Shown here: positions 1 to 23,900 of the stretch, piece by piece
How positions within the stretch are numbered: position 1 is the first letter of the stretch
Layout of the letters: the number at the start of each line of letters is the position of its first letter
IMG/VR virus record: IMGVR_UViG_3300032287_000839
Location: 45,794 to 109,793 of that record
Origin: a virus
Lineage: Duplodnaviria; Heunggongvirae; Uroviricota; Caudoviricetes
Direction: 5' to 3' (one strand)
DNA: 64,000 nt
Notes under the pieces: model-generated
Told to the model about the DNA's origin: nothing
What the model saw: only the letters and a program-made list of their open reading frames with translations
Database searches by the model: none
Position numbers and translations under genes: made by a program

Positions 1-45
1 TGGTAGTAACACTACAACTATAAGAGTTAATATAAACTGTTTCAT
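1..45 (-). CDS. 5' end of a gene running off the left edge; begins MKQFILTLIVVVLLP (signal peptide or TM-like)
   Basis: The reverse complement of 1..45 is ATG AAA CAG TTT ... The ATG overlaps the TAA stop of the upstream gene by 1 nt (TAATG), the same coupling pattern used elsewhere in this operon. Confidence 0.3.
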   Translation of the reverse strand, partial: MKQFILTLIVVVLLP

Positions 46-758
46 TATTTAGTGAAGATTCCTTTCTTCACCATTCTATCCAAAATTCTAGCACAAGCTA
101 TATCCAAAGCCTTCTTTGTAGCAATAGATATGGTTGATTGATTAAATTTCACAGGATCTAGACTTGCATCTGATAATCCTGAGGTTTCTTTTGTTGTCTT
201 AGCTTCACCAAGACCACTAGCAGATATCACAGTGGCTGTTTCAGCATCTGTAAATCTCACCTGAAGACCTATTCTAGTTACCATCAATTGACTAGTTGCA
301 AGCTTAGAGCTCACAGTTTCATCTTCTGATACACTATAGTCATAGCATTCTATACTAACAAAATACTTAGCTAGTCTAATCTTTCCTCTTCCGTCCAGCT
401 TATCTTCAGAGATTCCAGACTGCGAAGCTTGGAATTGCTTGACCATTCTGTTCTTGATTTCTGTCTTATCTTCTGTAAACTTGAACCTATTGAGGTTTTC
501 AAGATATTCCATAGAGATATTGGCAACACCAAGACCCACTCTTTTTTCCTTAAGCTCTGGATACATTTCATACATTTCATCACTGATACCACATTTTAAT
601 ATTTGTATAGGGATTTGAGGTCCTTCATAATCTAAGAATTGACTGATATCAATAGCCTTCTCAAAGCTAGCTGTATATTTCTCAGTCTTTGTAGAAGCTA
701 ATTGGCTGTTTACTACTCCTGAGAATAGTAAACAACCTATAACAATTAAATATTTCAT
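45..758 (-). CDS. secreted protein or lipoprotein with an N-terminal signal peptide, function unknown
   Basis: 237-aa ORF. N-terminus MKYLIVIGCLLFSGVVNSQ is a typical Bacteroidota signal peptide. Its start is coupled to the upstream stop through a TAATG overlap. Confidence 0.6.
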   Translation of the reverse strand: MKYLIVIGCLLFSGVVNSQLASTKTEKYTASFEKAIDISQFLDYEGPQIPIQILKCGISDEMYEMYPELKEKRVGLGVANISMEYLENLNRFKFTEDKTEIKNRMVKQFQASQSGISEDKLDGRGKIRLAKYFVSIECYDYSVSEDETVSSKLATSQLMVTRIGLQVRFTDAETATVISASGLGEAKTTKETSGLSDASLDPVKFNQSTISIATKKALDIACARILDRMVKKGIFTK

Positions 759-1351
759 TAGTGTGTGTCTTTAATCTTACCACAATGGATACACTCATAG
801 TCACCATCATGATCCACATCAGCAAATACATGCTCACATTGTCTGTGTTCTTGATGTTCGAATTCTAACTTCTTAAGTTCGATTTCATGGTGATGTTGTT
901 CAGCTACCTTATCAGCTTCTGCTTTAACAGCATGATCCACCTTTGTTTGTTCAGCTGTTTTAATTGCAGCGTTAACAAATGCATCAGGGATAGTTGGACC
1001 AAACGGTTTATTAGTCTCTTTCATATCATTGGTGTGAGACATAGTTGTACCATCTTCTTCATCCATCTTCTGTACAAGCATCTTGTCTTTGTCTGTATCA
1101 GAGAACCAGTAGTCAATAATTTTACCATAGCTACCAATGAAGGCACCTAATAATAATAGTAATAACTCCTTCCATTCTCCTGCCATAACTAATCCATAGT
1201 TCATTGACATGAAGATTCCTGCTATGATAAAAATGAATCCTCCTAAAACTGCAGCTGTGATGTACCATCTTCTGGTCATCATTGATGCTAAGAGATCTCT
1301 AAAGCCTGCTGGTTTTGGTTCCTCAGTTGGTTTTGATTTAAATAAGTCCAT
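758..1351 (-). CDS. membrane protein with two predicted TM helices and a His/Cys-rich C-terminal metal-binding tail
   Basis: 197-aa ORF. Two hydrophobic segments. C-terminus is EQHHHEIE...HQEHRQCEHVFADVDHDGDYECIHCGKIKDTH. The start may instead be the internal MMTRRW at about 1282. Confidence 0.55.
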   Translation of the reverse strand: MDLFKSKPTEEPKPAGFRDLLASMMTRRWYITAAVLGGFIFIIAGIFMSMNYGLVMAGEWKELLLLLLGAFIGSYGKIIDYWFSDTDKDKMLVQKMDEEDGTTMSHTNDMKETNKPFGPTIPDAFVNAAIKTAEQTKVDHAVKAEADKVAEQHHHEIELKKLEFEHQEHRQCEHVFADVDHDGDYECIHCGKIKDTH

Positions 1352-1453: not shown

Positions 1454-1768
1454 TTACCACTGTGCTGGTTTTTCTTTAAACTCATCAGCTTCCTTCTTAG
1501 GTTTTGGGGCTGGTGCAGGTTTAGCTGGTTCTGTAGATTTCTCTTTAATAATAACTGTTTTACCACCACCTGCAGCTTGTTGCTGTTGTTGCTGTTGAGA
1601 GTTATTAATGATGATAGATGGTTGAGCAGCTGCAGGTTTTTCTTCCTCACTGCCACCTGTTAATTTGTTTGTAACAAATCCACCTACACCTAGTGTAACT
1701 GTGCTTACTAATGTAATGATAATTCCTTTGAAGGATTTACCAGTTGATTCTTCTTGCTCTTCTGCCAT
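1454..1768 (-). CDS. small single-pass membrane protein with a poly-Q stretch and a Pro/Lys-rich tail
   Basis: 104-aa ORF with one hydrophobic segment (IIITLVSTVTLGVGGFV), then QQQQQQQ and PAKPAPAPKPKK. Confidence 0.5.
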   Translation of the reverse strand: MAEEQEESTGKSFKGIIITLVSTVTLGVGGFVTNKLTGGSEEEKPAAAQPSIIINNSQQQQQQQAAGGGKTVIIKEKSTEPAKPAPAPKPKKEADEFKEKPAQW

Positions 1769-1773
1769 GATTA

Positions 1774-2145
1774 TTATTTTTTAATGGTTATATTACGTTT
1801 GTATTCTGTACCAAAAATATCAATAAGCACTACAGTGTAGTCACCATTGATATGATCTGAGTAGTCTAACTCCTTGATAACTAATTCTTTATCTGCCAAG
1901 ATTCCTGTAGATTCTACAACATCTCCTTTTAAGTTAATTAGTTGTAAAGAGTATTTAGATCCTACAGTAACTGATAGATTAGCTATCACCTTACCTGAAG
2001 ATACAGGAGGTTCTACACTATTTATTTTTGTTGAGGTTGATTGTTTACCTAGTTCAATAGTTGGTGTAGATACCACCTTTGAACAAGCAATCACTAATAT
2101 TATAATTAGTAAATATATTCCTATTAGGGTCTTTAATTCTTTCAT
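1774..2145 (-). CDS. small secreted protein made of a signal peptide plus a T9SS (Por secretion) C-terminal sorting domain, with almost no cargo
   Basis: 123-aa ORF. Signal peptide MKELKTLIGIYLLIIILVIACS. The C-terminal ~75 aa (NLSVTVGSKYSLQLINLKGDVV...LDYSDHINGDYTVVLIDIFGTEYKRNITIKK) match the T9SS CTD pattern v.vyd..G..v....ld.s....G.Y.v.v......kk.ikk. The stop/start overlaps the next gene (ATGA). Confidence 0.5.
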   Translation of the reverse strand: MKELKTLIGIYLLIIILVIACSKVVSTPTIELGKQSTSTKINSVEPPVSSGKVIANLSVTVGSKYSLQLINLKGDVVESTGILADKELVIKELDYSDHINGDYTVVLIDIFGTEYKRNITIKK

Positions 2146-3839
2146 TAGAAGTTATTATATCCTGTTAATTTAATTGTTGTTGTGTTTAAGTTGATTCCCA
2201 TCTGGTTACCAGACATATCTGATGCATCCATGTTAGCAGTCACCTTAATATATGAATTGATATCCAATCCACTTTGTAATGTAGAAAACACTAACTTGAA
2301 TGGTGTACCACCAAGATAAGGTGTCTTTACATCTTTGTCTACAGCTCCAAACTTCACTCTCCCTGGTGTAGCATTTGCAAACACTAACCATGTAGGTACG
2401 TCCACTGTAACAGATTCAAACTTCACTTTAGTTGCATCATATACAAACTCAAACTGTAGTCCTGATAAGCTGTCTTTTGTACTAACGTTAACTGGAACTG
2501 TAAACTGATCTCCTAGTACAGTGATGTTGTTTAAACTTACATCAACCACTGGATTAGGTTTACTTGTATTTACAGCTGCAGCTTTTACACTGTAAGACTG
2601 AATTGTTCCATCAGGTTTAACCACCTGTGAGCTGTGTGATCTATTAATGTCTCCAGGGATTAAGTATTTAAGTTTTAAATCCTGAGCAATAGTAGATGTC
2701 TTAAACAACACACCATATAAGTTAGCCTTCTTCCAATGCTCTGGAGTAAGTGTATCATATACACTAGCTTCTAACATAGGAATATTATATAGAGTTTGAC
2801 CAGCCATTGGTTTTACCACCGTGTCAATGTTAGTCACCTGAGCAAACAATGCTGTTACATCATTACCATCAAACACTTTGTTTTGTATAATGTCAGAAGC
2901 AATCCAGCTAGCACCAGACTTCATATTTACATTTATGTATGTTCTGTCTAAGTTCTGCTTAATGAATTCATTCTGAGCTGCAGTGTAATCACTTACAGTT
3001 ACAGCTTTATTTAAGTAGCTAGGAATACTATCACTAGGAATTGCAGCGTAAGCATAATACCATGTGTTAGGACTTAGCTCAGGGCCTAAGAAGAATGTAC
3101 CATCATTTGCTGGTACCACTTGAGCTTTTACAACCTTTGTAATTGTATCCACAATTATAATCTTAGGAACAATACTACTAACAGCAACCTGTCCATTAAT
3201 CAATGCATTAGCACTAGGAATAGGTGTAATCCAAGAGCTGTGAGGCTTAGGCATATGTACAGTGCGATATCCTGTATAGCTAGATCCATAAGATTCTGCA
3301 GCATTAAAATATACAGAGTCATATGCAAATCCTGCATCAACATTAACCACCTTAAATCTTAGATAAGCTAATTCACCATCTACAAGATCAGTAGCAGAAG
3401 CTGTGTTAATCCATATGCGATTGATAGCTTTAATACCTCCTTGTGAATAGTTATAATAAGCATTATTAAAGTTGGTTATACCATCTGTAGTTGTATTACT
3501 TGAGTTCTTTACAAATGTATATCCAGGATAATATTGATTCTGGAATGTAGCACTAGCCCCTTGTGGAAGAGCTGAGCCTTGAGATCCTGCTGTAGGGAAT
3601 ACAATATCAATAAGATTGATAGCTGTAATCTGGTGTTCAAAATCTAAATAAAAAGATCTTGCACTGGAATTATTATTCCTATATGCAAGAGCTAATTGTA
3701 CTGTGTCTCCTTTTGTAATCTTTCCACCACGAATGTTTACACTTTGTTCTGTTGGTACAAGTCTTAGTCCTGGTGTTTGAGCATAAGAAAATGTCACAAT
3801 ACTTTGAAAAATTGTGACAAGTAATAATAGTTTTTTCAT
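2145..3839 (-). CDS. large secreted protein with a signal peptide, function unknown
   Basis: 564-aa ORF. N-terminus MKKLLLLVTIFQSIVTFSYAQ. Contiguous with and translationally coupled to its neighbours. Confidence 0.65.
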   Translation of the reverse strand: MKKLLLLVTIFQSIVTFSYAQTPGLRLVPTEQSVNIRGGKITKGDTVQLALAYRNNNSSARSFYLDFEHQITAINLIDIVFPTAGSQGSALPQGASATFQNQYYPGYTFVKNSSNTTTDGITNFNNAYYNYSQGGIKAINRIWINTASATDLVDGELAYLRFKVVNVDAGFAYDSVYFNAAESYGSSYTGYRTVHMPKPHSSWITPIPSANALINGQVAVSSIVPKIIIVDTITKVVKAQVVPANDGTFFLGPELSPNTWYYAYAAIPSDSIPSYLNKAVTVSDYTAAQNEFIKQNLDRTYINVNMKSGASWIASDIIQNKVFDGNDVTALFAQVTNIDTVVKPMAGQTLYNIPMLEASVYDTLTPEHWKKANLYGVLFKTSTIAQDLKLKYLIPGDINRSHSSQVVKPDGTIQSYSVKAAAVNTSKPNPVVDVSLNNITVLGDQFTVPVNVSTKDSLSGLQFEFVYDATKVKFESVTVDVPTWLVFANATPGRVKFGAVDKDVKTPYLGGTPFKLVFSTLQSGLDINSYIKVTANMDASDMSGNQMGINLNTTTIKLTGYNNF

Positions 3840-4301
3840 TTACAATAGTTTGTTAACCAATGAGTTACATGCTTTCTTTAAAGCTGTGGATAGATTCTGT
3901 TGGTTAAACTTGCCCCCTTCATCTATCAATAAAGTGGACATACTTGTTTCATCTGCAGACTCTTCAACAAGAGCCTTTTTAATAACTTTCCCATCTTTTG
4001 TAATTGTTCCGTATAGTCTTATTACAACTGATTCTTTATTAGAATGTATCACTGAGAAACTGGATTCTGTCTTTAGAACATCTAAGTATACAATATCTAC
4101 ATCTAGTCTTCTATCAGAAGCATGATCAATATCAATATTCTTATCTTGAATAATCTCTTCTAGAACATTCTTAACACCAAATTCAATTTTACGATTACCA
4201 GCAACTGCCCCAATCTTCACCTTGTTTGTAACATTACCTATTGATATAGAAGGTGGTACCTGGAACCAAATTGTTAGTATTAAAAATAGAGGTGCTATCA
4301 T
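3840..4301 (-). CDS. hypothetical exported or membrane-anchored protein
   Basis: 153-aa ORF with a hydrophobic N-terminus (MIAPLFLILTIWF). Its ATG overlaps the TGA stop of the upstream mini-ORF (ATGA). Confidence 0.55.
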   Translation of the reverse strand: MIAPLFLILTIWFQVPPSISIGNVTNKVKIGAVAGNRKIEFGVKNVLEEIIQDKNIDIDHASDRRLDVDIVYLDVLKTESSFSVIHSNKESVVIRLYGTITKDGKVIKKALVEESADETSMSTLLIDEGGKFNQQNLSTALKKACNSLVNKLL

Positions 4302-4423
4302 CGTCCTTGTCTATTGTATGATTTAGTTGCTTTATCTTTAGGACCTTTTCTCTTTTGAGCTTTGCCTCCTTTGCGTTTTCCAAAAGAGATCTTTTTACTA
4401 TCTCCACCTTTAGCTTTTGCCAT
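4298..4423 (-). CDS. 41-aa polybasic mini-protein (MAKAKGGDSKKISFGKRKGGKAQKRKGPKDKATKSYNRQGR) directly downstream of the endolysin
   Basis: Translated by hand from the reverse strand. The ATG lies 7 nt after the endolysin stop and the TGA overlaps the ATG of the next gene. It falls below the ORF-track length cutoff. Confidence 0.35.
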   Translation of the reverse strand: MAKAKGGDSKKISFGKRKGGKAQKRKGPKDKATKSYNRQGR

Positions 4424-4429
4424 GTTGGT

Positions 4430-5029
4430 TTATTTTAATAATGAATAGAATTCCTTAAAATGTTTAAGTCTATCTGCTAAGCCAATGGTACCACCATTAA
4501 CTCTCTTTGTAATCTTTGTAACCACATCATCTCCAGAACCTGTATCAGCTATTTCATTAAGTTTGTTCTTTTGCCAGAACCAAGCAGCTGATGCAAGAGC
4601 ATATTGAGATGCTACTAAATCAGGAGTAGCTGGGATATCTACACCAATTGATTTACCAAATGCTGTGTAGTTATCACGTCCAGTTAATTGAATATATCCT
4701 CTACCTCTAAATGCATAACCATCACCAGAAGCTTCAGGGCCATTACCCATTCTACTTGCATAAACTTTGTTAGCAATCTTCTGTGGTTTCTTAGCATAAG
4801 CAGTAGCTAACTCATCAGTAGGGAAGTACTTCTTAAAAATACCTCTCAATCCTTTCACTGAATAATTAAGATTTTCATTAGTAACTCTAAATCCACCACT
4901 CTCATGTCCAGCTTGAGCTAGGAAATGAGCAAGCCTTAGTCCAGTGTTAATACCAAACTTCTCTTGTATATTAGGGATTTGATCTATTACAGTGTCAGGA
5001 ATATGTCCTTTTAAATTACTTAGGTTCAT
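4430..5029 (-). CDS. endolysin, GH19-like (COG3179 'predicted chitinase') peptidoglycan hydrolase
   Basis: Carries the motifs LRLAHFLAQAGHESGGF and YAFRGRGYIQLTGRDNY (GH19 signature). The likely start is the internal MNLSNLKG Met at 5029; the ORF track's longer form (..5089) overlaps the upstream 67-aa ORF. Confidence 0.8.
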   Translation of the reverse strand: MNLSNLKGHIPDTVIDQIPNIQEKFGINTGLRLAHFLAQAGHESGGFRVTNENLNYSVKGLRGIFKKYFPTDELATAYAKKPQKIANKVYASRMGNGPEASGDGYAFRGRGYIQLTGRDNYTAFGKSIGVDIPATPDLVASQYALASAAWFWQKNKLNEIADTGSGDDVVTKITKRVNGGTIGLADRLKHFKEFYSLLK

Positions 5030-5219
5030 TTGTTTTCTTTTTAGCTGGTTTCTTTTTCTTAGGTTTAGCCTTCTTAGGCTTCTCCTCAACCACTATTGCT
5101 GTTCCTTTTGGTTCTACTTTATATAGCGTGTCAGCTATTTCTTTGTCTATTTTTTCAACACTTTTAACGTGCTCATTGCGTTTAGCAAACAATGATTTGA
5201 TGAATTTAATAATACTCAT
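5016..5219 (-). CDS. 67-aa protein with an amphipathic N-terminus and a polylysine C-terminus (KPKKAKPKKKKPAKKK)
   Basis: ORF-track entry. Its last codons overlap the endolysin ATG (AAATGAACCTAAGTAA). Composition suggests a membrane-active cationic peptide. Confidence 0.45.
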   Translation of the reverse strand: MSIIKFIKSLFAKRNEHVKSVEKIDKEIADTLYKVEPKGTAIVVEEKPKKAKPKKKKPAKKKTNEPK

Positions 5220-5220
5220 A

Positions 5221-5832
5221 TTATTTTAGTTTGATTTTCCAATATGATGAGAATCCATAATTGATTCCCCCATTGATACCTGTACCTATTTGTAAACCTA
5301 TCAACTGATCTCTCTTAGTCTTAAGAATTAATCCACCGTGAGCACCTGTAGGAGCAAAGGTTGGATTTAAGTCTAGACCAAATCCATAATAAAGCTGAGC
5401 TTTAGGAGGATCGTAGTGAGTGATAGTCTTAGTGACAGTCACTGTAGGTATTTTATAATTACTTCTTACAGATCTACCCTTGATAGCATTCTGGTTAACT
5501 GTATCTAGAATAGCTACATAACCCAATGTGTCAAGTCTAACAGTGTCTCTAAACTCTACAAGAGCCATATACTTACTTAATAAATCATTGTACTGAGCCA
5601 ATAATCTAGGATAGTTTGTATCAGCTATGTATTGAGGAGGAGTTTTAATAGTGTCATGTAACACCTTACCTTTCAATGTCTTATAGATAGTAGTATCATG
5701 TACAGACCATGTAGTGTCATGTTTAACAACTGTGTCAGACTTTTTAACACCATTACCACGACAGCCTCTACCATTTCCAGTGGCCATAAAAATAACAAGT
5801 ACTATTATAATAGCTGCTAACATTTTATTCAT
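5221..5832 (-). CDS. membrane-anchored (signal-anchor) protein of the lysis cluster; possible spanin component
   Basis: ORF 5221..5874, trimmed here to the MNKM start. The ATGAATAA sequence overlaps the stop of the upstream holin-like gene. Hydrophobic stretch LAAIIIVLVIFMATG. Confidence 0.5.
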   Translation of the reverse strand: MNKMLAAIIIVLVIFMATGNGRGCRGNGVKKSDTVVKHDTTWSVHDTTIYKTLKGKVLHDTIKTPPQYIADTNYPRLLAQYNDLLSKYMALVEFRDTVRLDTLGYVAILDTVNQNAIKGRSVRSNYKIPTVTVTKTITHYDPPKAQLYYGFGLDLNPTFAPTGAHGGLILKTKRDQLIGLQIGTGINGGINYGFSSYWKIKLK

Positions 5833-6067
5833 TTGTTTTCTTTTTTTGTGAGAATTTATCCCATGTATCAGCACCCATTCCTACAATTGTCATAATCATA
5901 ACAGCCTCTACAAGCTTGTCAGAAGGTTTAATATCTCCATGAGAGAAGCTGTTAGCTGTTAGTGTAAAACATAAAAATATAGAACCTAGTAATGATACTA
6001 CAGGTTTAATAGAGATTGAGCCACGCTCATCTTTAAATAGTTCTAATACCCATTCTTTAAAAGTCAT
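5825..6067 (-). CDS. holin-like small membrane protein with two TM helices
   Basis: 80-aa ORF with two hydrophobic helices (VVSLLGSIFLCFTLTA and LVEAVMIMTIVGMG) and a charged C-terminus. Sits next to the endolysin. Confidence 0.5.
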   Translation of the reverse strand: MTFKEWVLELFKDERGSISIKPVVSLLGSIFLCFTLTANSFSHGDIKPSDKLVEAVMIMTIVGMGADTWDKFSQKKKTNE

Positions 6068-6365
6068 GATTGCTTAGTTTATTTTTTGTTAAAATAGCAT
6101 AGTGATTTGCCTTAGGTGCCTCATCTTTAGCTGGGGCTGCAGGTAAATTAGTTGTGCTAGGTTTATATAGTTGTCTTTCAATATTGTCAATTCTAGTTTT
6201 ATCTACATTTGACTGGGCCATTAATAGCTTAATATCAGCTTTAACATCTGCTATATCAGACTTAATGTCATTAATCATAGACCAGATCAGTAAGGATACA
6301 AGACTCATCACTGATGGGAATATCCATGTTCTAAGAGCGTTTACAGGAGCACTTTCATTTGCCAT
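6057..6365 (-). CDS. N-terminal TM plus coiled-coil protein, i-spanin-like (or a second holin)
   Basis: 102-aa ORF. TM segment IFPSVMSLVSLLIWSMI followed by a heptad-like stretch DIKSDIADVKADIKLLMAQSNVDKTRIDNIERQL. Confidence 0.45.
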   Translation of the reverse strand: MANESAPVNALRTWIFPSVMSLVSLLIWSMINDIKSDIADVKADIKLLMAQSNVDKTRIDNIERQLYKPSTTNLPAAPAKDEAPKANHYAILTKNKLSNHDF

Positions 6366-6445: not shown

Positions 6446-6477
6446 GAATTCCTCGCAAAACTAAGGTAAAAAAACCA
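6446..6477 (-). promoter_or_regulatory. Bacteroidetes-type sigma-A promoter (TTTG, 20 nt, TAGTTTTG)
   Basis: The minus strand reads ATATTTGGTAGTTTGGTTTTTTTACCTTAGTTTTG. This matches the -33 TTTG and -7 TAnnTTTG consensus with a 20-nt spacer. Confidence 0.45.
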
Positions 6478-6921: not shown

Positions 6922-8985
6922 ATGAACCAATTAAATATGAAAACTAAGGTGATGTACATAGCTCCTCACTTATCAACAGGAGGAATGCCTGCATTTTTAT
7001 TAAAGACTATTCAGGAATTAAAGGATAGTTTAGACATCTATGTAGTTGAGTATCAATGTCATAGCTTAGATTTTGTAGTTCAGCGTAATGCAATTATGGA
7101 GATTGTTGGAAACAACTTCACCACTCTGTATGAAAATAAGATGGAGCTATTTAATGTAATCAATGAATGGAAACCAGACATAATCCACATACAAGAACCT
7201 GCTGATAGATTTGATCAAGAGATGATGAGAGAGTTATATAAGGATGATAGAACATATAAACTTGTAGAAACCTTCCATGATGTAGCATTCAAACCTGAAG
7301 AGAAGATATTGTTGTCAGAAGCATATGCTTTCTGTACACCATATCATGTTGACATATTTGTTAATGATACATATAAACAGGTGATTGAATTTCCTATAGA
7401 GAATAAGCAACCAGGACTTATAGCTAAGATGGATGCTAAAGATAAGCTAGGGTTCAATAAGTTTAGAGCTAATGTACTTAATGTAGGGCTGTGGACTAAA
7501 GGTAAGAACCAGGGAGAAGGACTTGAGATAGCTAGAAAGCATCCTGATATGGATTTCCATTTTGTTGGTAACCAAGCTGGGAACTTCCAAGACTATTGGG
7601 AACCATTAATGAAAGACCTACCAGAGAATGTAAAGATATGGGGAGAGAGAAATGATGTAGATGAGTTTATGAAAGCTGCAGACATATTCATGTTTAACAG
7701 CACGTGGGAATGTAATCCATTAGTTCTTAGAGAAGCAATTGGATATGGGTTGCCTGTTGTAGCTAGAAACCTACCACAGTATGGAGACATGTTCACCAAC
7801 TATCTATTACCTATTGATACTGATCTAGAGCTGATTGACTACAGCAGTTACAATAGAAAGATGTATGACCTACCAGAGAATACATTTACTAAAGACTACA
7901 TAGAGTTCTACAGCCTTGTAACTAAGTTATCTACAAGAAAACAAGGAGTGGTGATAGCTCAGCACTTTGTAGACAATCCATTCCTAGAGATTAAAGGTGT
8001 GTCAGATAGCAACTTCAGAGTGGCATTCTTTGATGAGCAAGATAGATGTCATTATGAAAATACAGTTAGAGCTAATAGCTGGGTGAGATTGAATAGACAG
8101 TATTATACTAAGTGGACAGCTAAGGTGTGGAAAGATGATTTGCTTTTGTACACTAACACTTTAAACTTTGTAGATAAAACTGTGTTCATTGTAATCGATA
8201 GCAAAAGCTTAGGTGATACAATTGCTTGGGTTCCATATGCTCTAGAGTTCCAAAAGAAACATAATTGTAAGGTGGTTGTGTCCACTTTTTGGAATAAAAT
8301 ACTGGACTATCCTGAGCTAGAACTGGTAGAACCAGGAGCTACAGTGGAGTGTTATGCTTTATATAGAATAGGATGGTTTTGGAATGAGGCTAAAGAACCT
8401 GAGTTATGTAACACAATACCTTTACAAAAAGCAGCTAGTAATATACTAGGTCTTGAGTATACAGAAATAAAACCTCAACTTAAATATGAGTATAACTATC
8501 CTGCATCAAACGATCATCCTTACATAGCAATTGCTACCAACTCAACTATGGAATGTAAGTTCTGGACTAGAGAAGGATGGCAGGAAGTAATTAACTGGTT
8601 AAATAGTTTAGGATACTCAGTTATAAATGTATCTAAAGAGGATAATCCGTTTGCCAATTGTATAAAGATAGCTGATACATCTATAGAGAATACAATGAAT
8701 GTGATAGCAGGTGCTAAGCTGTTTATAGGATTGTCCAGTGGATTAAGCTGGTTAGCATGGGCTTTACATCAAAGAGTGGTGATGATTGCAAACTTCACAG
8801 AAGCTAATCATGAATTTAAATGTTACAGAGTGACTGATACAACTTCATGTAATAGCTGTTGGAACGATCCAACTATTAAGTTAGATCCACATTGGAACTG
8901 GTGTCCTAGGAATAAGGACTTTGAATGTCAGAGATTAATACCAGCAAGTATGGTAATGGATAAAATAAAAGAAGCAGGCATTTAG
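6922..8985 (+). CDS. two-domain glycosyltransferase: N-terminal GT4/GT1-like domain fused to a C-terminal GT9 heptosyltransferase-like (TibC/AAH 'BAHT'-like) domain
   Basis: N-domain motif FNSTWECNPLVLREAIGYGLPVVARN, matching the GT4 E..G..LEA.A.G.PVV pattern. C-domain motifs IGLSSGLSWLAWALHQRVVMIANFTE (GT9 nucleotide-sugar pocket-like) and the Cys cluster CYRVTDTTSCNSCWNDP...WNWCPRNKDFECQ, which resembles the iron-finger of autotransporter heptosyltransferases. It is the only plus-strand gene in the window. The true start is ATG 6922 (MNQLNMKTK), not 6805. Confidence 0.8.
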   Translation: MNQLNMKTKVMYIAPHLSTGGMPAFLLKTIQELKDSLDIYVVEYQCHSLDFVVQRNAIMEIVGNNFTTLYENKMELFNVINEWKPDIIHIQEPADRFDQEMMRELYKDDRTYKLVETFHDVAFKPEEKILLSEAYAFCTPYHVDIFVNDTYKQVIEFPIENKQPGLIAKMDAKDKLGFNKFRANVLNVGLWTKGKNQGEGLEIARKHPDMDFHFVGNQAGNFQDYWEPLMKDLPENVKIWGERNDVDEFMKAADIFMFNSTWECNPLVLREAIGYGLPVVARNLPQYGDMFTNYLLPIDTDLELIDYSSYNRKMYDLPENTFTKDYIEFYSLVTKLSTRKQGVVIAQHFVDNPFLEIKGVSDSNFRVAFFDEQDRCHYENTVRANSWVRLNRQYYTKWTAKVWKDDLLLYTNTLNFVDKTVFIVIDSKSLGDTIAWVPYALEFQKKHNCKVVVSTFWNKILDYPELELVEPGATVECYALYRIGWFWNEAKEPELCNTIPLQKAASNILGLEYTEIKPQLKYEYNYPASNDHPYIAIATNSTMECKFWTREGWQEVINWLNSLGYSVINVSKEDNPFANCIKIADTSIENTMNVIAGAKLFIGLSSGLSWLAWALHQRVVMIANFTEANHEFKCYRVTDTTSCNSCWNDPTIKLDPHWNWCPRNKDFECQRLIPASMVMDKIKEAGI

Positions 8986-15900: not shown

Positions 15901-17928
15901 AATCAATTCAGTTATCTCTGCTTCTGAGAAAGACTTAGGATCTTTTCCTTTAAACTTATCGTTATACTTATTTATTAAATTAGACAATTGTCTATTTAAC
16001 ACCTTAGCCTGAGTCAACAAAGGAGCAATGTTACCTCTCATTTGTAACTGTCTAATACTTGTAAATAGAATATCTAATTGTTCATTCTTGTTAAGTTTTT
16101 CAGAAGGAGTTACACCTTTTTCAGAAAGTCTTTTAAATTCATCATTAAGTTTAACTAATAGATCGTCAATTTCTTTATTTCCTGTAGTTTCTGTTTCTAA
16201 ACCTAATGGGATTAAATAATCCTGCTTAATGTTCTCAGTATAAACATCTCCTATTTCAATACCTTTAATTTTAGGAATCTCTTTAGTTGTAAGATTCATT
16301 TGTGTGTATTCAGCCCTAATAGGAATCATTCTTGTTTGATCAAAGTCTTTTAGATTAACCCCATAGTTATTCTGAAGAATAAGCTTATATTGATTCATTT
16401 GGTTTCTCCAAGAATTAATATAATACCAAGGCAATTTACCCTTGTTTCTTTTTATATCAACATCAATAAACTTCCAGTCAAGGATGTTCACCTTTCCATC
16501 AGGAGTGATTGCTAAGAAATCTATTGTACCAGCTACACCTCTTTTAGCATCATAAACAACAACCTCAGATAAAAATCTAGTTCCTCTAGGGAATGTATTT
16601 AATCTCTGTTTTAAGTTATCTCTAAGAAGCTCATAGTAGTCTCTATTGTTAGGGTCTAATTGAGATGTATATCCTAAATCATCTAATGGATCTTCTCTTA
16701 AATTACCATCCTTGTCTACAAATAGACCAAGTGCATATTCAATATCAGAGTGACCTTTGGTACCATTAAGTGCTTTATCTTCATCTACTAATTGCTTGTA
16801 TTCAGACTTAGTTAATTGGTTAGCATCTAATAAATCTTTATTCCAACCTTTGATAATCTCAGTAACTCTAAAAGGTACCTTCTTATTATCTATATAATAA
16901 CCATCTTCTCTTTTCTCAATCTTATCTCTAATCGAATTGATGTTATCGATTATCTGTTGTTGAGAAGTTTTCTGTAAGTAAACATCTCCTTCCTCAGCTC
17001 TAATATCTTCAGCTGTACCAATTGCTTCTCCAGACATCACCTTAATAGCAGCCTCATCAAAACCTGTTTTAACAAACAAGTTCTTGATAGCATTGATTAT
17101 CTTCTCCCACCAGCTCTCCACCTTAGCTAAGTTCTCAGGATTCTCTAATGTTCCTTCAGCTTTATTAATAATAGTTTCAGATAGCACCTTAGCAATAGCC
17201 TCTTTCTTTAACTTGATGATATCAGGTTTACCTTCTTTAGTTTGATAGTTCTTATCATTACCATAGGTTTTAAACACCTCATTAAGGATAGCATAGTTAT
17301 TAATCTCCTTTAACAGTTGATTAAATAACTTAGGATCATTCTGTTGTATAATCTCTACAGCAAAGTGCATAGCTTCCTCAGGAAGTGCTACAGCTTCTTT
17401 ACCTTCTACAACCTGTACAAGCTTCTGCATGATGTTAGCAACACCATTAGCATCTTGTGTTATACCATCTATATTAATAGACTTAAGTGTCTGAATATCA
17501 ACACCTATTCTATTTAAGAAATCTTTAACAATAGCTATACTAGCAGGAGATGCAGCAGATGCAGGGATTCCTTCTTTCTGAAAGAACTCACCTCTATCTT
17601 CTTCTGTATATCCACCTCTCTCTTTTTCATCTTCTGTTAATGCACCAGCTTCTTCTTCTAATGCTTTCTTATAGTCATCAAAGTATTGTTGAGTCAAGTT
17701 ATCTGATGGACTAATATAGTAATGATTTCTACTAGTAAAACTAGGAGTGATTACATCCTCTTTGAATTGTTGATTAACTTGTCTAGCAGCCTCTGCAGCT
17801 TTAGGAGCATCAGTTATTTCAAGCATATCGTTTTGATCAAGCGATTGCTTAAAACCTTCATAACCTAAAGCTTTTTCTCTAGCTTCATCAATGATGTCAT
17901 ATTTGATATCTAATAAACATTTGCCCAT
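13000..17928 (-). CDS. giant virion or cargo protein (1642 aa) with a PD-(D/E)xK-like motif and C-terminal hydrophobic segments
   Basis: Single uninterrupted ORF. Motif GTIDFLAITPDGKVNILDWKF (D...D.K spacing typical of PD-(D/E)xK). Hydrophobic helices near the C-terminus. Confidence 0.6.
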   Translation of the reverse strand: MGKCLLDIKYDIIDEAREKALGYEGFKQSLDQNDMLEITDAPKAAEAARQVNQQFKEDVITPSFTSRNHYYISPSDNLTQQYFDDYKKALEEEAGALTEDEKERGGYTEEDRGEFFQKEGIPASAASPASIAIVKDFLNRIGVDIQTLKSINIDGITQDANGVANIMQKLVQVVEGKEAVALPEEAMHFAVEIIQQNDPKLFNQLLKEINNYAILNEVFKTYGNDKNYQTKEGKPDIIKLKKEAIAKVLSETIINKAEGTLENPENLAKVESWWEKIINAIKNLFVKTGFDEAAIKVMSGEAIGTAEDIRAEEGDVYLQKTSQQQIIDNINSIRDKIEKREDGYYIDNKKVPFRVTEIIKGWNKDLLDANQLTKSEYKQLVDEDKALNGTKGHSDIEYALGLFVDKDGNLREDPLDDLGYTSQLDPNNRDYYELLRDNLKQRLNTFPRGTRFLSEVVVYDAKRGVAGTIDFLAITPDGKVNILDWKFIDVDIKRNKGKLPWYYINSWRNQMNQYKLILQNNYGVNLKDFDQTRMIPIRAEYTQMNLTTKEIPKIKGIEIGDVYTENIKQDYLIPLGLETETTGNKEIDDLLVKLNDEFKRLSEKGVTPSEKLNKNEQLDILFTSIRQLQMRGNIAPLLTQAKVLNRQLSNLINKYNDKFKGKDPKSFSEAEITELIEEINNAEETITIYTNLDTELDFLFGGDLSEEDKKLETELTRTAKEARKLQSQLRKLSDEFNETVTSASVDIKNLLSPEKVIKGIGKWFGSTRVFQTAAIQTLYRKANKAFAYAGFDTLDETRRLEKLKKDFDVWAKSQNLSGKNYFDILKKKDSNELIDQYDPKFFSTLKQKINEKDVDWIRDNVDVEAYKAALEEKIAEEQLRIENKMSSRVGTDVENLEAEADEISQMRRKYDISNKTGAGWFQYILINKHPKADLETAEWKKLQSVPAAKAFYEYIQEKNKEYAEIGYINKGDVRTFLPFVRKGIMEKIVFGGKISVGEQFIRSITVDEGDIGFGKFNPITGQPINTIPRYFTREIDGEVSTDLFRTMSLYNEMAIKYKYLSELEEQAIGILNTERNKKAIATSVFGKTQRDAAGDLVYTPDNSENTKLYEDMMKAIIYGQKYVTSDSFDQILGKFGNYGEKINKKIGRNIFPENLEGKQISFNKVVSNLNTQFQITALGLNFLSAASNYFGGNAQSIINSGKYFTKADYLRNQAWILPGKMIGGDKKKYIAALEYFLPLNENYNAEIAKLLSVNKLTQERIQDFLMILMRSSDLNVQTTNFYSFLDNSIVQNGEVVNAREYLRNTDEYSNMFAGTNEERKARNEKFEKDVKDLIEEKSVMKSAELVDGKLVIPGVERKSESVVKLRRNVQALTKNALGSLGPDDIRPINQTIYGASMMLFKNWIPGLVDVRLGNLKYNSASDAYEWGRMRMMYRVVSSDFLGSLDSLQSAIRGNGDKWVAQMRTLHEKKAADYKADTGKDLEMTEGEFLNLVNQNVKSQLLDVMFFASMWALAMGLKAFAPDDKEDPAVRNKYKYLMKAVDKFKDEITYFYDPTSILSLTSKGIFPAVGLIENMRKVVVNGGKELFYLYEGDEKALKKNFVLKYAMKSFPIGSQIGAYLPMFFPEMAKELGIKAQSQAGYGK

Positions 17929-20900
17929 TATCCGCAGTTATTTTGGTTGTTATCTTTAATTGGAGGTAATCCTTCTGGCTTAATCTCTTTAGCTTCGTTT
18001 TGTAAAGGTACAGTTTCTTCTTTTGTTTCTGTAAAATAATCAATAATTTTTTGACTAAGAATCTCATTTTCTACCTTCACTGTACCATTATTAAATACAG
18101 ACTTTCTAGTGTCATTGTACATTTCTGTAGCAAATTGACCATCTCCCCAAAGGTTGATAGCTTTATAGTATACATTAGAACCTCTACTAAACTCTGTTCC
18201 ATCCTCATATTTAACTTTCTGGAAGCCCATTACATCATTTAAAGATGTATCACCTGCAGCTTTTCTTTTAGCATAGTCAGCTCTTGTTACAGGCTTATTG
18301 TCAATAATATCAATCATTTGACTACCGTTGTTTACCACTCTAGGAATCAATATGTAATCAGAACCAACATCAGCAAAGTTATCAAATCTGTCAAGAACCA
18401 ATATATTCTTAACTCCTTCTTCAGACAAATCTTCTAATGTAGGGAATTGTTCAAACTGAACATCTACAATAAGCTCTCCTTTATCATTAAATCCTTCATT
18501 ATATAAGCTTGGGACAACATTAGTTAATTTCTTAAATATGTTTTCATCTTTCCAGTTGTTTCTTTCAAATGCACCAAACTTACTGAAGTTAGTTAAGTTT
18601 AAATCAGACGCTACTGAGTTAACAGCATTTTCCACTCTCTTAGCATAATCCTCAATAGGAATGATGTTCTTAATAGATATAGCTGATTGGTATGTTCCTT
18701 GAAGGATAGCCAAGTCTACTATCTTATTATATAAAGCATTTGTAGCTGGATTATCTCTAAGCTCTCTCATCATGCCAGTGTATAAGTTCTCATCAAAAGA
18801 ATCCTTAAGATTAGCTTTCAACTTAATACTCTTAGCACCACCAACTCTATTAGAAGCAGCTTGAGTTAATTGCTGTAAGATTTCCATATCTGGATTTTCC
18901 TTTCTAGCTTTAACTATTTCTCCTGCAACTGCTGTATATGGATCAATTAATAATTCTCTTGTTCTATCAGATAAGTCAGTCTTAGTCTGGAAAATATAGT
19001 CAATAAATGATGCCTTGATCTTAGCAGCAATTGTATCAAAATTCTCAGCACTTAAATATTCATTAGCTGTATATGGTTCTAACACCTTACTAGTAATAAC
19101 TGAATACTGAAGTTGATCAAGTTTTAATATAGCTCCTAGTGCATTCATAGACTTTTCAGCTAAGTTAGCTTGTCCACCTATAAATGAATTATCTAATATG
19201 TCTTTAGCAGATGTAAATATATTTGACTCTTCAGCTGTTTCTGTTCTCATTCTTTTCTTATCCATAGCCTCTGCACTTCTAAACTTAGTAGTGTCATAGT
19301 TAGTAGCCTGTGTAAGTTTAAATGCATATTGAGCCATCTTATGATACTTCAAGAACTCAGCTAATATTCTTTGTTGTTCAGCATTATTAATAGCCTTACC
19401 AGCATAATAGTTCTCAATATTAGGAGCAAGATTCTTCATCTCAATCTTTGCAGCAGCAGCTGATTTTCTATCAGTTGGAAACTTAGCTCTAATTGCATCT
19501 AAGTTCTTTTTGCTATACACAGATTTAGAATCAATACTATCTAAGTAGTTCAAGTACTCCTTAATAATAGGTTGGTTCAAGAATAATGCTGTAGTTTTTA
19601 CAGGGCTTCCTATTCTTGTTAAGAACATTGCTGTACCAATAACATTATTACTACTAACCACCTTAAGGATATATGGGTTCTTAGCCACATCAACAAATGA
19701 TGTAATGAATCCAGATAAGTTATCAGATATGTATTTACCTGCTTTATCCTTTGTTCCAGATAAAGATACTACCTCTTTACCATTGATTGTCACTGTGTTA
19801 TGAGGAAGAGCTATTTGACCATTGCCTAATATCTTTCTTTCATAATCATTTAATTCAGCAACCTTAACAGGATCAATATACACTTCTCCTTTCTGAGCTA
19901 ATGAATGGTTTGTAATGTTTACAGCACCAATACCTACCCACCTCTTAGCAGTAACAAATGCATGTCTTAATGATGTCATATAGTTACCATCAAGAATTCT
20001 GTTCTTAACTTTACTTTCATCTACCCCTCTAAGCTTATCTAATTCACTAGCCATATTTTCTAATCCACCATCAGATACAGGATTAATCAATCTTTCATAG
20101 TTCTCAGGAAGAGTTAATAATTTCTCAAGACTGTCAAAGTATTGATTCTCAAGGGATTGTTTATATAATTTATCTGCTAATGTACCATAATCATCTTCTG
20201 TAGCTACTACAGTTCTTTCATTAATATCAAAGATACTTTCTAAGTCTTCTTTCAATATAAACTTCTTAATAGCTGCTTTAGCTTCTTCACCATATCCAAA
20301 GAATGGAACTTCTTTTAATTGACCTTTGGAGTTAACATATGTATTCTTTAAATAGATATTAAGCTTATCTATATCAAAGTCAGATCCTGCTTTGCTAGTA
20401 ATCTCAGAAGGTACAACAACTGTATCTCCCATAGATTGTGGTAAGAAACCTTTGATTTTAAATACCTCTGCAGAACTTAATGCCTGTGTAGGAATACGGA
20501 AACCAATACCTCTAAGAATTGATTCATTCTCAGGCTTGTTTAAATATGTTAATAATTCTTCATCAGACTTAAATCCAGCTTTCTTAAACTGATCTTTGAA
20601 TGAATGAGGAATTAATATTTCTATGTATGGTTTATCTTTAGTGTAGAACTTCAATACAGGGTTAGCTTGTTTAGCATCTCTCTTTCCAGACTCCCATAGA
20701 GTTGAAGGAACTTGCACCTTAGCACCACCATTCATCTTAGGAGAGATAAGAGCCTTATCCACCATAGAGTAAAGAATGTTTCTAATTTGTGCGTATGCAG
20801 GAGATGATTCAAATGGAATTGGAAACTCTCCATTCTCATCAATTTTGATTGTATCTCTAATATTATCAGCCAACTCTCTTCTTGCCATTTCATACTCAAG

Positions 20901-23900
20901 AGCTTGAGACACACTTACAGGATCAACTAAATTATATCCATCACCAAGATCTTCAATACCTAACTTATCTAATAGTTGATTGTAAGCTTCTAAATGTAAT
21001 GCATCTAATATCTTTTTGTTACGTGCATATTCTGCAGCAGCTTCAGGACTTGTAGCAACACCATTATCAAATATGTCTAAGCTAGATAACTTAGTAAGCT
21101 GAGAACCACGTGTTTGTGCTTTAGCTCCTGCATAACTATTCTCCACTTGAATACCATAAGTCTTCCAAGCTACAGGGATAATATTATCAAATGCTTCAGT
21201 ATTAACTTCACCATCTTTATATAAGTCATATAACTTCTCAGCACCTACTTTTCTACCAGATTCAAATACAGCATAACCAACCCCTTGCTTCCACATGTTA
21301 GTATACAAAGTCTCTAAGTTAGTTCCTTCTACAGTTTTGTAGTAAAGAGGCATTTGAGAGAACTTATCTAATACCAAATCAAACTGATTCTTACCATATT
21401 TATTACCAGATACAATAGGTTTCATTACCTCTGTAACATATTCAGGTTCAGGAGTTTTAAGTAATGCAACATCCTGCTTTTGAAGAGCTTTATTTGTATA
21501 AGCGTACAATCCTTTATTAGCAAATGCATCTCTTGTGTAAGCCATTTGCCATTGATGCCAAGCTTCAGCAGGACTGTTTAAATCCCACTCACCATTTCTA
21601 AGCTTAACTTCTCTGTATGTACCATCCATAATCATAGAAGCAGCATCTGCCTCATTAGTACCATTCTCAAGAACTATATCTTTAAGAGTAACAGTATTTA
21701 TATATGGTTTGAATGTATGATATCCAGGATCAAAAGAATTCAACGCTATTCCATTAGCCTTGTTATATTCTACATTATGAAATGAGTTAAATTCAGGGCT
21801 ATCAAATGTAGTTCTTCTAGGAGATAAGAATGATTTGATACGCTTAGTCTCATCTAGATTACCTTTCTTAATAGCAAACTGATACGGATCACCAAACAAT
21901 GCTTTGTGCATTTCTATGTTATTGATAACATAGTTAATCCTAGCAAAGGTTAAAATATCATTTATATCATCTTCTGTCAATGATTCCTTATTCAATTTCT
22001 CAGCTGTAGTAAACTTACCATCTAAAGAATCATACTTAAACGTACCATTAGGATTGTTAACAATCTTATTGTTGTACATTAGTATGTTCTTAGTTTCAAC
22101 CACATTGTTTTCAATAAACGCTTTTACATCAGCATTGATCTTCTCAATATTTTCATTAATATATGTATCAATTTCTTCTTGTGTAGCACCATTGATAATC
22201 AAGTTGTTAACACCAGATAATGTCTTACCTGTAAGAATATCCTTAAAGAAACGTAACTCTTTAGCTTTATTTAAATTTTTAAAATTATCAGTAACGTTTG
22301 CTAAATAATCTCTATCACTTTGAGCCAAAGCAATGTCATCTTTTAAATATCCTTTGAATATTGTATATGTTTTATTCCAAGCTAATCCACCACTCACCTC
22401 AGCAAACTTAACATTGTTACCTAAGTTAATCATCCATTCTGTAGATGAATCTGCTGGGTTTAATATATAGTAGTTACCATTAAGGTTTTGGTTAAGCTCT
22501 TGTGTAAATCTGTTACCAAGAGTCAATCCTGTAGTAGATACACTTGTATCATTATCTTGATTCTTTGTACCATCAATGTAAGAAACTATTAATGATTTAA
22601 TTCTCTTACCTGCAGCATTAAAGAACAATCCTCCCTTCTTAAGGAATTGAGAATGTGTAGAGAATACATCATTAAGCTCAGGTCTAGCTGCCATCACTTC
22701 TTCTAATGTATTAGCCTCATTCACCTCATTTGCAAATACTGAAGGAGCGTTATTCTCAGAATAAGCTTGTCTCTTTTCACCTTCAACATTAGGGAATGTA
22801 CTATCCTGAACAGGATTTTCCACCTTAACATATAATTCAGCTAATGTATCTAATGGACCATTAATACCTAATGTCTCACCAGTCACTGTAGCTATCTCTT
22901 TTGTTGTTCCAAAATATGTATGAATAGAAGCTACAGCTTTAACAAACTCATCTCTTTGTTCAGGTTTCAACTTTAAATAAGTATCTAATGTATACGCAAC
23001 ACCAATCTTATTTAAGAAGTCTACCATCTTTTGTGGTGTGCTAATATCTACACCTTCTGTAGACATCACTTTATAAGTCTTTTGACCTTTATTATATCTA
23101 ACAAAAGAATTAGGATCTGTAGATAAGTCCTTAAGATTATTTACCCAATCCTCCTTAGTTTGTTTAGTTACAGTGAATTGATTAGCAGGAGCTGTATATA
23201 CATCTCCACCACTAACATATTGCACTAGTGCCTGAGGATTTTGTTTTGTAAAGGTCTGATAGAACTGTACAAACAATCTCCAATCATGTGGTTCAAACTT
23301 GCTAAAGTCTATCTCCATTGAGTTTCTATCACCCTTCATACGAGTGAATAATCTAACATAATTAGAGTCATACTTAGCTAAGTCTGTCAACTTATCTACC
23401 ATCTTACTCACCTTAGTAGTGTTAGCTAACTTATCTATCACTGTAGCAAATGATCTACTGAAAGATAAAAGCTTCAAGAAACCTTTTGTAGCACCTTCAG
23501 TTACAGCCGCTTTAGGCAAAGATAATGTAGAACTATTCACTTGGTTAGTAGGAGCAGTTTCCACCAATGTACCTACTAATAACTTAACAGGGAATGGTGA
23601 GTTTTTCTTCCAGTCTGTAGTGAATGCTTCTGGAGCATATAATTTATTATTTACATTCTCTGCATTGATATCTAATAAGTTATCCTCATCAAACTCAATT
23701 TTAAATGTACGTAAGAATTCTTTTGTTTTAATCACAAGATCAGACCAAGTCTCATCTCCAACCACTTTATTCTCTTCTGCATACTCAGCTTTAATGCCAT
23801 TGAATATATCAGAAGCAGTTAAGTTAGAGATATCATATAATGACTTATTTGTACCAAAGACATTTCTAAACACTCTAGCAGTCATGTCTTTAACAATATC

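Follow-up and report, generated by a model that had tools for sequence, protein, structure and literature searches.

Why should a phage encode a protein that amounts to little more than an export signal followed by the sorting tag of a bacterial secretion system? This question is raised by a small gene in the 64,000-nucleotide stretch of viral DNA analyzed here (the window, corresponding to positions 45,794 to 109,793 of the IMG/VR record IMGVR_UViG_3300032287_000839). The original prediction had described its product as essentially a signal peptide plus a C-terminal sorting domain (CTD) of a type IX secretion system (T9SS). We found this to be correct for the passenger-less, CTD-like domain and the short linker that precedes it; the signal, however, appears to be of the lipoprotein (SPII) type, which had been overlooked.

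The phage and its probable host

T9SS is present in most lineages of the Bacteroidota, and the host of this phage very probably belongs to this phylum. The window itself is phage DNA, containing genes for terminase, portal, major head protein and tail fibers, all on the minus strand, and no tRNA genes were found in it. Several features together point to a Bacteroidota host. First of all, an SD-like motif was seen in only 1 of the 40 window genes. Second, the Bacteroidota -7 consensus, TAnnTTTG, occurred six times on the coding strand of the intergenic gaps (at 6456, 6887, 9446, 12932, 32031 and 49520) against 0.98 expected (p = 4e-4), with no enrichment over the window as a whole (87 against 85 expected). 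Third, the predicted SPI sites of two exported proteins near the gene of interest expose an invariant N-terminal Gln, namely Q21 in a 564-aa protein (SYA/Q) and Q19 in a 237-aa protein (VNS/Q), as in the Q rule of the Bacteroidetes, by which Gln becomes the N-terminus after SPI cleavage (PMC10367356). Fourth, the endolysin and the head protein resemble their counterparts in Flavobacterium and Cellulophaga phages, and a related contig of 113 kb has been deposited as a Cytophagia MAG. Lastly, phage-borne T9SS cargo has a precedent (PMC7468147).

The gene and its product

The open reading frame proposed in the original prediction, ending in KRNITIKK, was found in the ORF listing as stated, and its features and those of its neighbors are collected in Table 1. 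The 123-aa product reads MKELKTLIGIYLLIIILVIAC/SKVVSTPTIELGKQSTSTKINSVEPPVSSGKV...GDYTVVLIDIFGTEYKRNITIKK, with ...EYKRNITIKK at its C-terminus. It is the product of a real gene, since its relatives form 81 clusters (at 90% identity) of near-constant length, 54-100% identical and nearly all exactly 123 aa long, and since the gene is under purifying selection, with a dN/dS of approximately 0.27-0.34 against two relatives. These relatives come from metagenomic contigs, the longest of which measures 123 kb.

The ATG of the gene overlaps the TAA stop of the upstream 564-aa ORF by one nucleotide (TAATG), and no terminator-like site was found between the two genes or across the region from 6365 to 45, in a sigma-70 promoter and terminator scan in which the counts were near those of shuffled controls. 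The overlap and the lack of an intervening terminator-like site support co-transcription and translational coupling of the two genes, and thus agree with the co-transcription with a 564-aa secreted protein that had been suggested.

Table 1 Features of the lysis/envelope region of the window
Feature	Positions	Strand	Basis or remarks
Gene of interest; predicted 123-aa lipoprotein (signal, short linker, T9SS type A CTD-like domain)	1774..2145	-	ORF listing; stop codon 1774-1776
Residues 1-21, predicted lipoprotein signal peptide, lipobox L-V-I-A-C21	2083..2145	-	Invariant Cys21; lipobox rule
Residues 22-39, linker with conserved T-P-x-I-E-L-G (P28, I30, L32, G33)	2029..2082	-	Alignment conservation
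Residues 40-123, predicted seven-stranded beta-sandwich, homolog of T9SS type A CTDs; reaches the C-terminus, K116 kept	1777..2028	-	
564-aa secreted partner, predicted SPI signal	2145..3839	-	Pfam Cohesin, AF2, Foldseek; upstream of the gene of interest
153-aa module protein, N-terminal hydrophobic signal/anchor	3840..4301	-	Synteny, alignment A6
104-aa module protein	1454..1768	-	Sequences from 9 loci; directly downstream of the family of interest
Endolysin of the GH19 type; its start is probably the ATG at 5029	4430..5089	-	PHROG 181 endolysin, E 8e-73; Glyco_hydro_19 in related loci
80-aa two-TM holin-like protein	5825..6067	-	Read from sequence; homolog within the module in L007/L028
197-aa two-TM protein with Cys-rich end and 237-aa SPI-secreted protein	45..1351	-	Synteny, alignment A7; both genes conserved downstream of the module
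TAGTTTTG, TAnnTTTG match (Bacteroidota -7 consensus)	6456..6463	-	91 nt upstream of the gene that opens the lysis/envelope string

Relationship of the C-terminal domain to T9SS type A CTDs

The check named in the original prediction, an HMM search for TIGR04183 (Por_Secre_tail), failed for the window protein, which had no match even at E <= 10; taken alone, it also gave nothing usable against the Pfam, NCBIfam and PHROGs HMMs. The curated cut-off was in fact missed throughout the family, the best relatives, which belong to its more distant members, scoring 25.0 and 24.7 bits (E 2e-5) against the gathering score of 27 for PF18962, and the best E-value for TIGR04183 among relatives being 0.0067. 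Por_Secre_tail was nonetheless the top family in 15 of 28 relatives in Pfam and in 14 of the 28 with TIGR04183, and these matches placed residues ~45-115 on model positions 2-70 of 75.

Comparison at the level of families gave a clearer picture. For this purpose, 14 reference CTDs were used, these being the C-termini annotated by PGAP as 'T9SS type A sorting domain' on Bacteroidota plasmids. Alignment of the family profile with the 14 CTDs by hhalign returned a probability of 96.6% (P 5.7e-10) over 76 columns with the C-termini in register, against 1.7-1.9% for reversed-sequence controls. Conversely, an HMM built from the same CTDs, when run on the six-frame ORFs of the window plus 12 related phage loci (942 in all), matched only this lipoprotein family. 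The motifs of the family domain also fall in register with those of CTDs, with (Y)PP for YPNP, then G-x-Y-D-L-x-L, and the terminal K-x-P-I-x-I-K(K), although the window copy has only a degenerate form of the PNP motif. Lauber et al. 2024 (PMC10994853) describe a Lys close to the C-terminus of CTDs as nearly invariant and of functional importance; at the corresponding position, K116, 34 of 40 diverse members of the phage family have Lys and 5 have Arg. The predicted structure is a seven-stranded beta-sandwich within the size range of CTDs (~70-90 residues), and in all family members listed the last strand lies 0-2 residues from the C-terminus.

Considering the agreement of this family-level profile-profile and fold evidence, the domain is best regarded as a diverged homolog of type A CTDs that lies below the curated family thresholds, despite the lack of a single-sequence HMM match. 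Overall, it is like the T9SS type A CTDs (TIGR04183 / PF18962) in being a C-terminal beta-sandwich of ~80 residues with the same motifs and the near-C-terminal Lys, and unlike them in its sub-threshold scores and in its setting: instead of an SPI signal and an upstream passenger, the phage protein has a predicted SPII signal and a linker of ~18 residues only.

Searches of the PDB did not reveal this relationship. Foldseek of the phage protein against the PDB retrieved only generic macroglobulin and Ig / Fn3-like beta-sandwiches, and the PDB sequence-profile searches retrieved no CTD chain, only a laccase at E 1.4 and the summed weak matches to GhpA repeats. The latter were collected by profile A4 on the Ig-like repeats of PDB 9flp (GhpA, the grappling-hook protein of Aureispira), the matching motif being GFT(A/S)...G-x-Y-x-L-x-v-D-x-nG; this likeness probably reflects a common sequence habit of beta-sandwiches in Bacteroidota surface proteins. 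DUF3244 (PF11589; PDB 3SD2, 3D33), a family of small Bacteroides proteins, was a weaker match than Por_Secre_tail; it is cellular and has no known tie to phages or cohesin proteins.

Lipid anchor and linker

The signal peptide of the 123-aa protein is predicted with confidence to be of the lipoprotein (SPII) type, and the CTD would thus be tethered to lipid. The lipobox criterion used was [LVI][ASTVI][GAS]C after a positive n-region and a hydrophobic h-region, which the window protein fits with MKELK...LVIA-C21. This strict rule (PROSITE PS51257-like) was passed by 143 of 157 family members, the remainder being truncated or near misses, and LPAM_1 matched a relative, P0120, at 19.1 bits. Cys21 is invariant among close relatives as well as in 41 diverse members that are 26-69% identical to the window protein, and there is no second Cys in the mature part of any of the 157 members.

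The original prediction had counted about 25 residues before the domain. It was found that ~18 residues separate Cys21 from strand 1 and ~24 residues separate it from the start of the HMM match, and that the linker carries a motif of its own, P-x-I-(D/E/N)-L-G. In close relatives, P28, I30, L32 and G33 are invariant; in the wider family the L-G persists, G33 being nearly invariant across the 41 diverse members. The linker residues are predicted to be coil, with a pLDDT of 64-77. Because of this conservation, near and far, the 18-residue stretch from Cys21 to strand 1 does not look like a neutral spacer.

A conserved module near the lysis genes

The gene is part of a four-gene module that encodes, in order, an exported protein of ~155 aa, a protein of ~565 aa, the lipoprotein, and a membrane protein of 70-105 aa. 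The same order was found in six of the seven contexts examined, which included members only 26-40% identical and a contig with a T4-type Phage_DsbA gene; the seventh context is a lineage in which two of the genes are fused (see below). In these contexts the module usually adjoins a GH19 endolysin gene and genes for small membrane proteins.

The 564-aa partner consists of N- and C-terminal cohesin-like domains, a small beta domain and a helical middle region. It matched Pfam Cohesin at 27.2 bits, and Foldseek of its AF2 model retrieved cohesin and cohesin-dyad structures (E 4e-9); at least 927 homologs, 550-580 aa long, were found. The 104-aa protein has an acidic N-terminal tail, one TM helix, and a low-complexity stretch rich in Q, P and K. 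Its family ends in a conserved ...DEFKE..PKW (…PAQW in the window copy), and its topology is likely to be type II; in appearance it resembles a flexible tether that could span the periplasm. The 153-aa protein had no informative match in Pfam or the PDB, and the profiles of the 153-aa and 237-aa proteins (the latter encoded at 45-758 on the minus strand) likewise gave no informative PDB match and no Pfam relative. All that these two proteins have in common is a weak motif in a C-terminal helix, GKFNQxxLSxAxKKA...C (hhalign 47%).

Between the endolysin gene and the module lies a conserved ORF of 41 aa that is extremely basic (MAKAKGGDSKKISFGKRKGGKAQKRKGPKDK...; 4298-4423, minus strand), and ORFs of 41-42 aa occupy the matching position in L001, L002/L003 and L005/L006. 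Upstream of the endolysin gene, three genes for proteins of 102, 80 and ~203 aa occupy 5221-6365 on the minus strand. The first of these proteins has an apparent TM segment and heptad-like repeats; the second may be the holin; and the third has an N-terminal TM segment and a Gly-rich, beta-strand-like C-terminal part. Of the six gap matches to the -7 consensus, the one ahead of this gene string, TAGTTTTG, may serve as its promoter.

Distribution of the family and a natural fusion

A profile search of 1.84 billion representatives yielded 57 matches at E < 1e-3, nearly all of them 112-137 aa long and with the domain in terminal position; among the 57 there was no case of a long cargo protein whose C-terminus matched. 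A broader profile collected 389 proteins, with the same architecture in the 120 matches listed. Profile scans of 185,579 species genomes revealed no cellular or prophage copies of either this family or the cohesin family, tblastn of the 123-aa protein against 50,697 phage records gave nothing below E 3, and tblastn against the plasmid collection gave no relatives. The proteins were thus found on phage contigs only, and constitute a tight family of their own, mostly ~115-137 aa long, with ~400 members in hundreds of uncultured Bacteroidota phages, in which the module is core-like.

One lineage (L007/L028) offers a natural experiment, in that a single gene replaces the genes for the cohesin protein and the lipoprotein. 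It encodes an SPI signal, a cohesin N-domain and a CTD-like domain, the cohesin part being 29% identical to the 564-aa protein (E 3e-19) and the CTD part 31% identical to the 123-aa protein (E 1e-6); the lipid tether has been lost, along with two thirds of the cohesin protein. The fusion in L028 is intact, at 270 aa, and ends in ...GNEVKYPITIK. In L007 the end of the gene is frameshifted by a 23-bp tandem duplication (ACGATTTGATATTTATTGACGTA x2; 8760-8810), and we considered whether this truncated copy (P0138) was a decaying pseudogene; this was rejected, as the duplication is missing from L028 (3760-3790), which was assembled independently from the same phage and where the gene is intact. A scan of IMG/VR for the fusion gave no match. 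By its sequence, the fusion has the ordinary architecture of a cargo with its CTD, and it points to a functional link between the cohesin protein and the CTD lipoprotein. With the two parts joined covalently, the lipobox and the linker would be dispensable in this lineage.

Comparison with known systems

Small proteins dominated by a CTD are known from cells. Fjoh_0547 of F. johnsoniae (112 aa) and PorA of P. gingivalis (246 aa) are both tiny CTD proteins, and the CTD of PorA, which has an ordinary N-terminal signal of 27 residues, binds PorV as a ligand and escorts no enzyme (PMC7712824). Compared by description, these two are like the phage protein in having a CTD with little or no passenger, and unlike it in being cellular. 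An ORF on a plasmid of Chondrinema litorale, annotated as 'T9SS type A sorting domain' (138 aa; L027 1607-2415, NZ_CP111056.1), was also considered as a cellular precedent for a CTD-only protein, but was rejected as a split-off fragment of the upstream ORF, which it overlaps by 4 nt in a different frame.

Small phage lipoproteins are also known. Llp of T5 and Cor of phi80/N15 are exclusion lipoproteins of the outer membrane that act on a protein complex in the outer membrane of the host, and their genes stand alone beside that of the receptor-binding protein. The 123-aa protein is likewise a small phage lipoprotein by prediction, whereas its gene belongs to a four-gene module in a lysis cassette. 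No sequence relation to Llp or Cor was found, the only PHROGs matches being at E > 0.06 and to families of unknown function.

Phage genes with T9SS type A sorting domains have been described in 'Cryophage', for which hijacking of the system, and perhaps superinfection exclusion, was proposed (Bellas et al. 2020, PMC7468147). In that case the CTD is fused to enzymes or to a PA14 protein, encoded in variable islands; the domain described here is stand-alone, apparently lipid-anchored, and part of a core-like module.

Possible roles of the lipoprotein

The evidence presented above suggests that these phages probably dock onto, exploit or block the T9SS export machine of the host, and the question is in which manner. 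Our preferred reading, which we hold tentatively and with rather more doubt than conviction, is that the 123-aa protein is an outer-membrane lipoprotein that serves as a T9SS-docking adaptor for the cohesin protein. The protein would be exported by Sec, lipidated, and delivered to the outer membrane of the Bacteroidota host late in infection, where its conserved linker would serve to bind the cohesin protein translated together with it. Its CTD would then enter the SprA pore and contact the loops of PorV in the manner of host cargo CTDs, so that the cohesin protein would be placed at the type IX translocon or carried through it. Passenger and sorting tag would, in other words, reside on separate polypeptides as a 'split cargo', and the lipid anchor would either keep the complex on the cell or stall the translocon. 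This role is favored because it accounts for the conserved linker, the coupling to the partner gene, and the natural fusion. Several points nonetheless speak against it: passing through SprA should be harder for a protein with a lipid anchor, and we know of no lipidated T9SS cargo; the position of the module within the lysis cassette fits a lysis role equally well; the fusion occurs in one lineage only, with two thirds of the cohesin protein gone; and the sub-threshold HMM scores, the degenerate PNP motif of the window copy and the generic beta-sandwiches retrieved by Foldseek count against it as well.

Next in probability, although rather doubtful, is the possibility that the protein acts as a tethered pseudo-substrate, in line with the blocking of T9SS that the original prediction had envisaged for a cargo-less CTD. 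In the known translocon structures, CTDs lodge in the pore of SprA against the loops of PorV, where they bury ~1,850 A2, and exit CTD-first with PorV, and substrates pile up in the translocon if their release is blocked (PMC10994853). A passenger-less CTD whose N-terminus is held to the membrane by a linker of ~18 residues would be unable to leave with PorV; it could thereby stall SprA-PorV as a non-releasable substrate and titrate PorV. The lipid anchor makes such a tethered form mechanically more plausible than a soluble one, and the CTD identity with its retained Lys, the invariant lipobox and the absence of a passenger all agree with it. Gliding adhesins and receptors would no longer be exported, which could result in superinfection exclusion and spare the progeny from adsorbing to debris (cf. 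T5 Llp); alternatively, the very large SprA pore could be opened at lysis. Resistance of Flavobacterium columnare to phage does map to gliding and T9SS genes (bioRxiv 10.1101/2020.10.02.323337). This explanation leaves the linker motif and the obligatory partners of 565, 155 and 100 aa unaccounted for, and the fused variant retains the CTD without the lipid tether. Moreover, genes for exclusion tend to be accessory and sporadic in distribution, whereas a large group of phages has this module as a core-like element, and expression together with the lysis genes would be late for exclusion.

A still less likely alternative is that the protein has no connection to T9SS and is a spanin-like accessory of the envelope or of lysis, acting with the inner-membrane 104-aa protein and a periplasmic cohesin protein; the CTD fold would then go back to a host gene but serve only as an Ig-like module for interactions. 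In two-component spanins, the gene of the o-spanin lipoprotein is embedded in, overlaps, or lies just after the i-spanin gene; the o-spanin is short, proline-rich and largely unstructured, with Cys for disulfides, and its i-spanin partner is a coiled-coil. The locus is reminiscent of this arrangement in that a lipoprotein gene lies directly upstream of a gene for a putative type II inner-membrane protein, near endolysin and holin-like genes, the last of which is found within the module itself in L007/L028. Furthermore, within the string of lysis genes no lipoprotein other than the 123-aa protein was detected; its gene lies 2.3 kb from that of the GH19 endolysin, and no canonical spanin pair was recognized in that string. 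The likeness does not extend to details, however. The gene order is opposite to that of known i-/o-spanin pairs, with the membrane-protein gene downstream; the lipoprotein is predicted to be a folded beta-sandwich without periplasmic Cys, its few Pro residues being confined to the linker; the 104-aa partner is of low complexity and not a coiled-coil; and two extra proteins belong to the module. In addition, the C-terminal position, the CTD motifs and the Lys have been kept over deep divergence, although a lysis accessory would need none of them. That the protein is an ordinary Ig-like surface or periplasmic lipoprotein, without a tie to T9SS or lysis and resembling CTDs by convergence, would suit the macroglobulin and Fn3-like Foldseek matches, the lack of a CTD chain in the PDB profile search and the missed HMM cut-offs, but is most improbable in view of the hhalign result (96.6% against less than 2% for reversed controls) and the fact that, out of 942 phage ORFs, the CTD HMM picked out this family alone.

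Throughout the Bacteroidota, secretion, gliding and virulence are driven by T9SS. In the literature searched, neither this module nor a stand-alone CTD with a lipid anchor was found described, and T9SS cargo in phages was the subject of a single report, on ordinary enzyme-CTD fusions (PMC7468147). A family of ~400 members in a fixed module by the lysis genes suggests that a large group of aquatic phages possesses a device built on a host sorting tag. If the adaptor or any other form of docking on SprA-PorV is true, the protein would give a naturally occurring translocon probe or inhibitor, would make it possible to ask if a passenger and its tag can function in trans, and would represent a new type of phage-host interface in an under-studied phylum. 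Should it be a pseudo-substrate, this would be the first case of a phage encoding an inhibitor of the apparatus for type IX secretion and gliding; if independent of T9SS, it would provide a lead to the missing outer-membrane step in lysis by Bacteroidota phages.

Other features of the window

The remainder of the window adds a few observations on the phage itself. For its major head protein, the nearest relatives are from Leptolyngbya and F. psychrophilum phages and share no more than 21-26% identity with it. The region 13000-46027 (minus strand) contains very long ORFs of the structural module, of 3808 (17928-29354), 1830, 1642, 1397 and 1114 aa, of which the 1830-aa ORF matches virion structural proteins in PHROG. 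Between 6495 and 8985, a DUF6165 gene on the minus strand and a gene on the plus strand for a 722-aa multi-domain glycosyltransferase-like protein are arranged divergently, and in the related phages L002 and L011 this position is occupied by a larger cluster of glycosyltransferase and methyltransferase genes.
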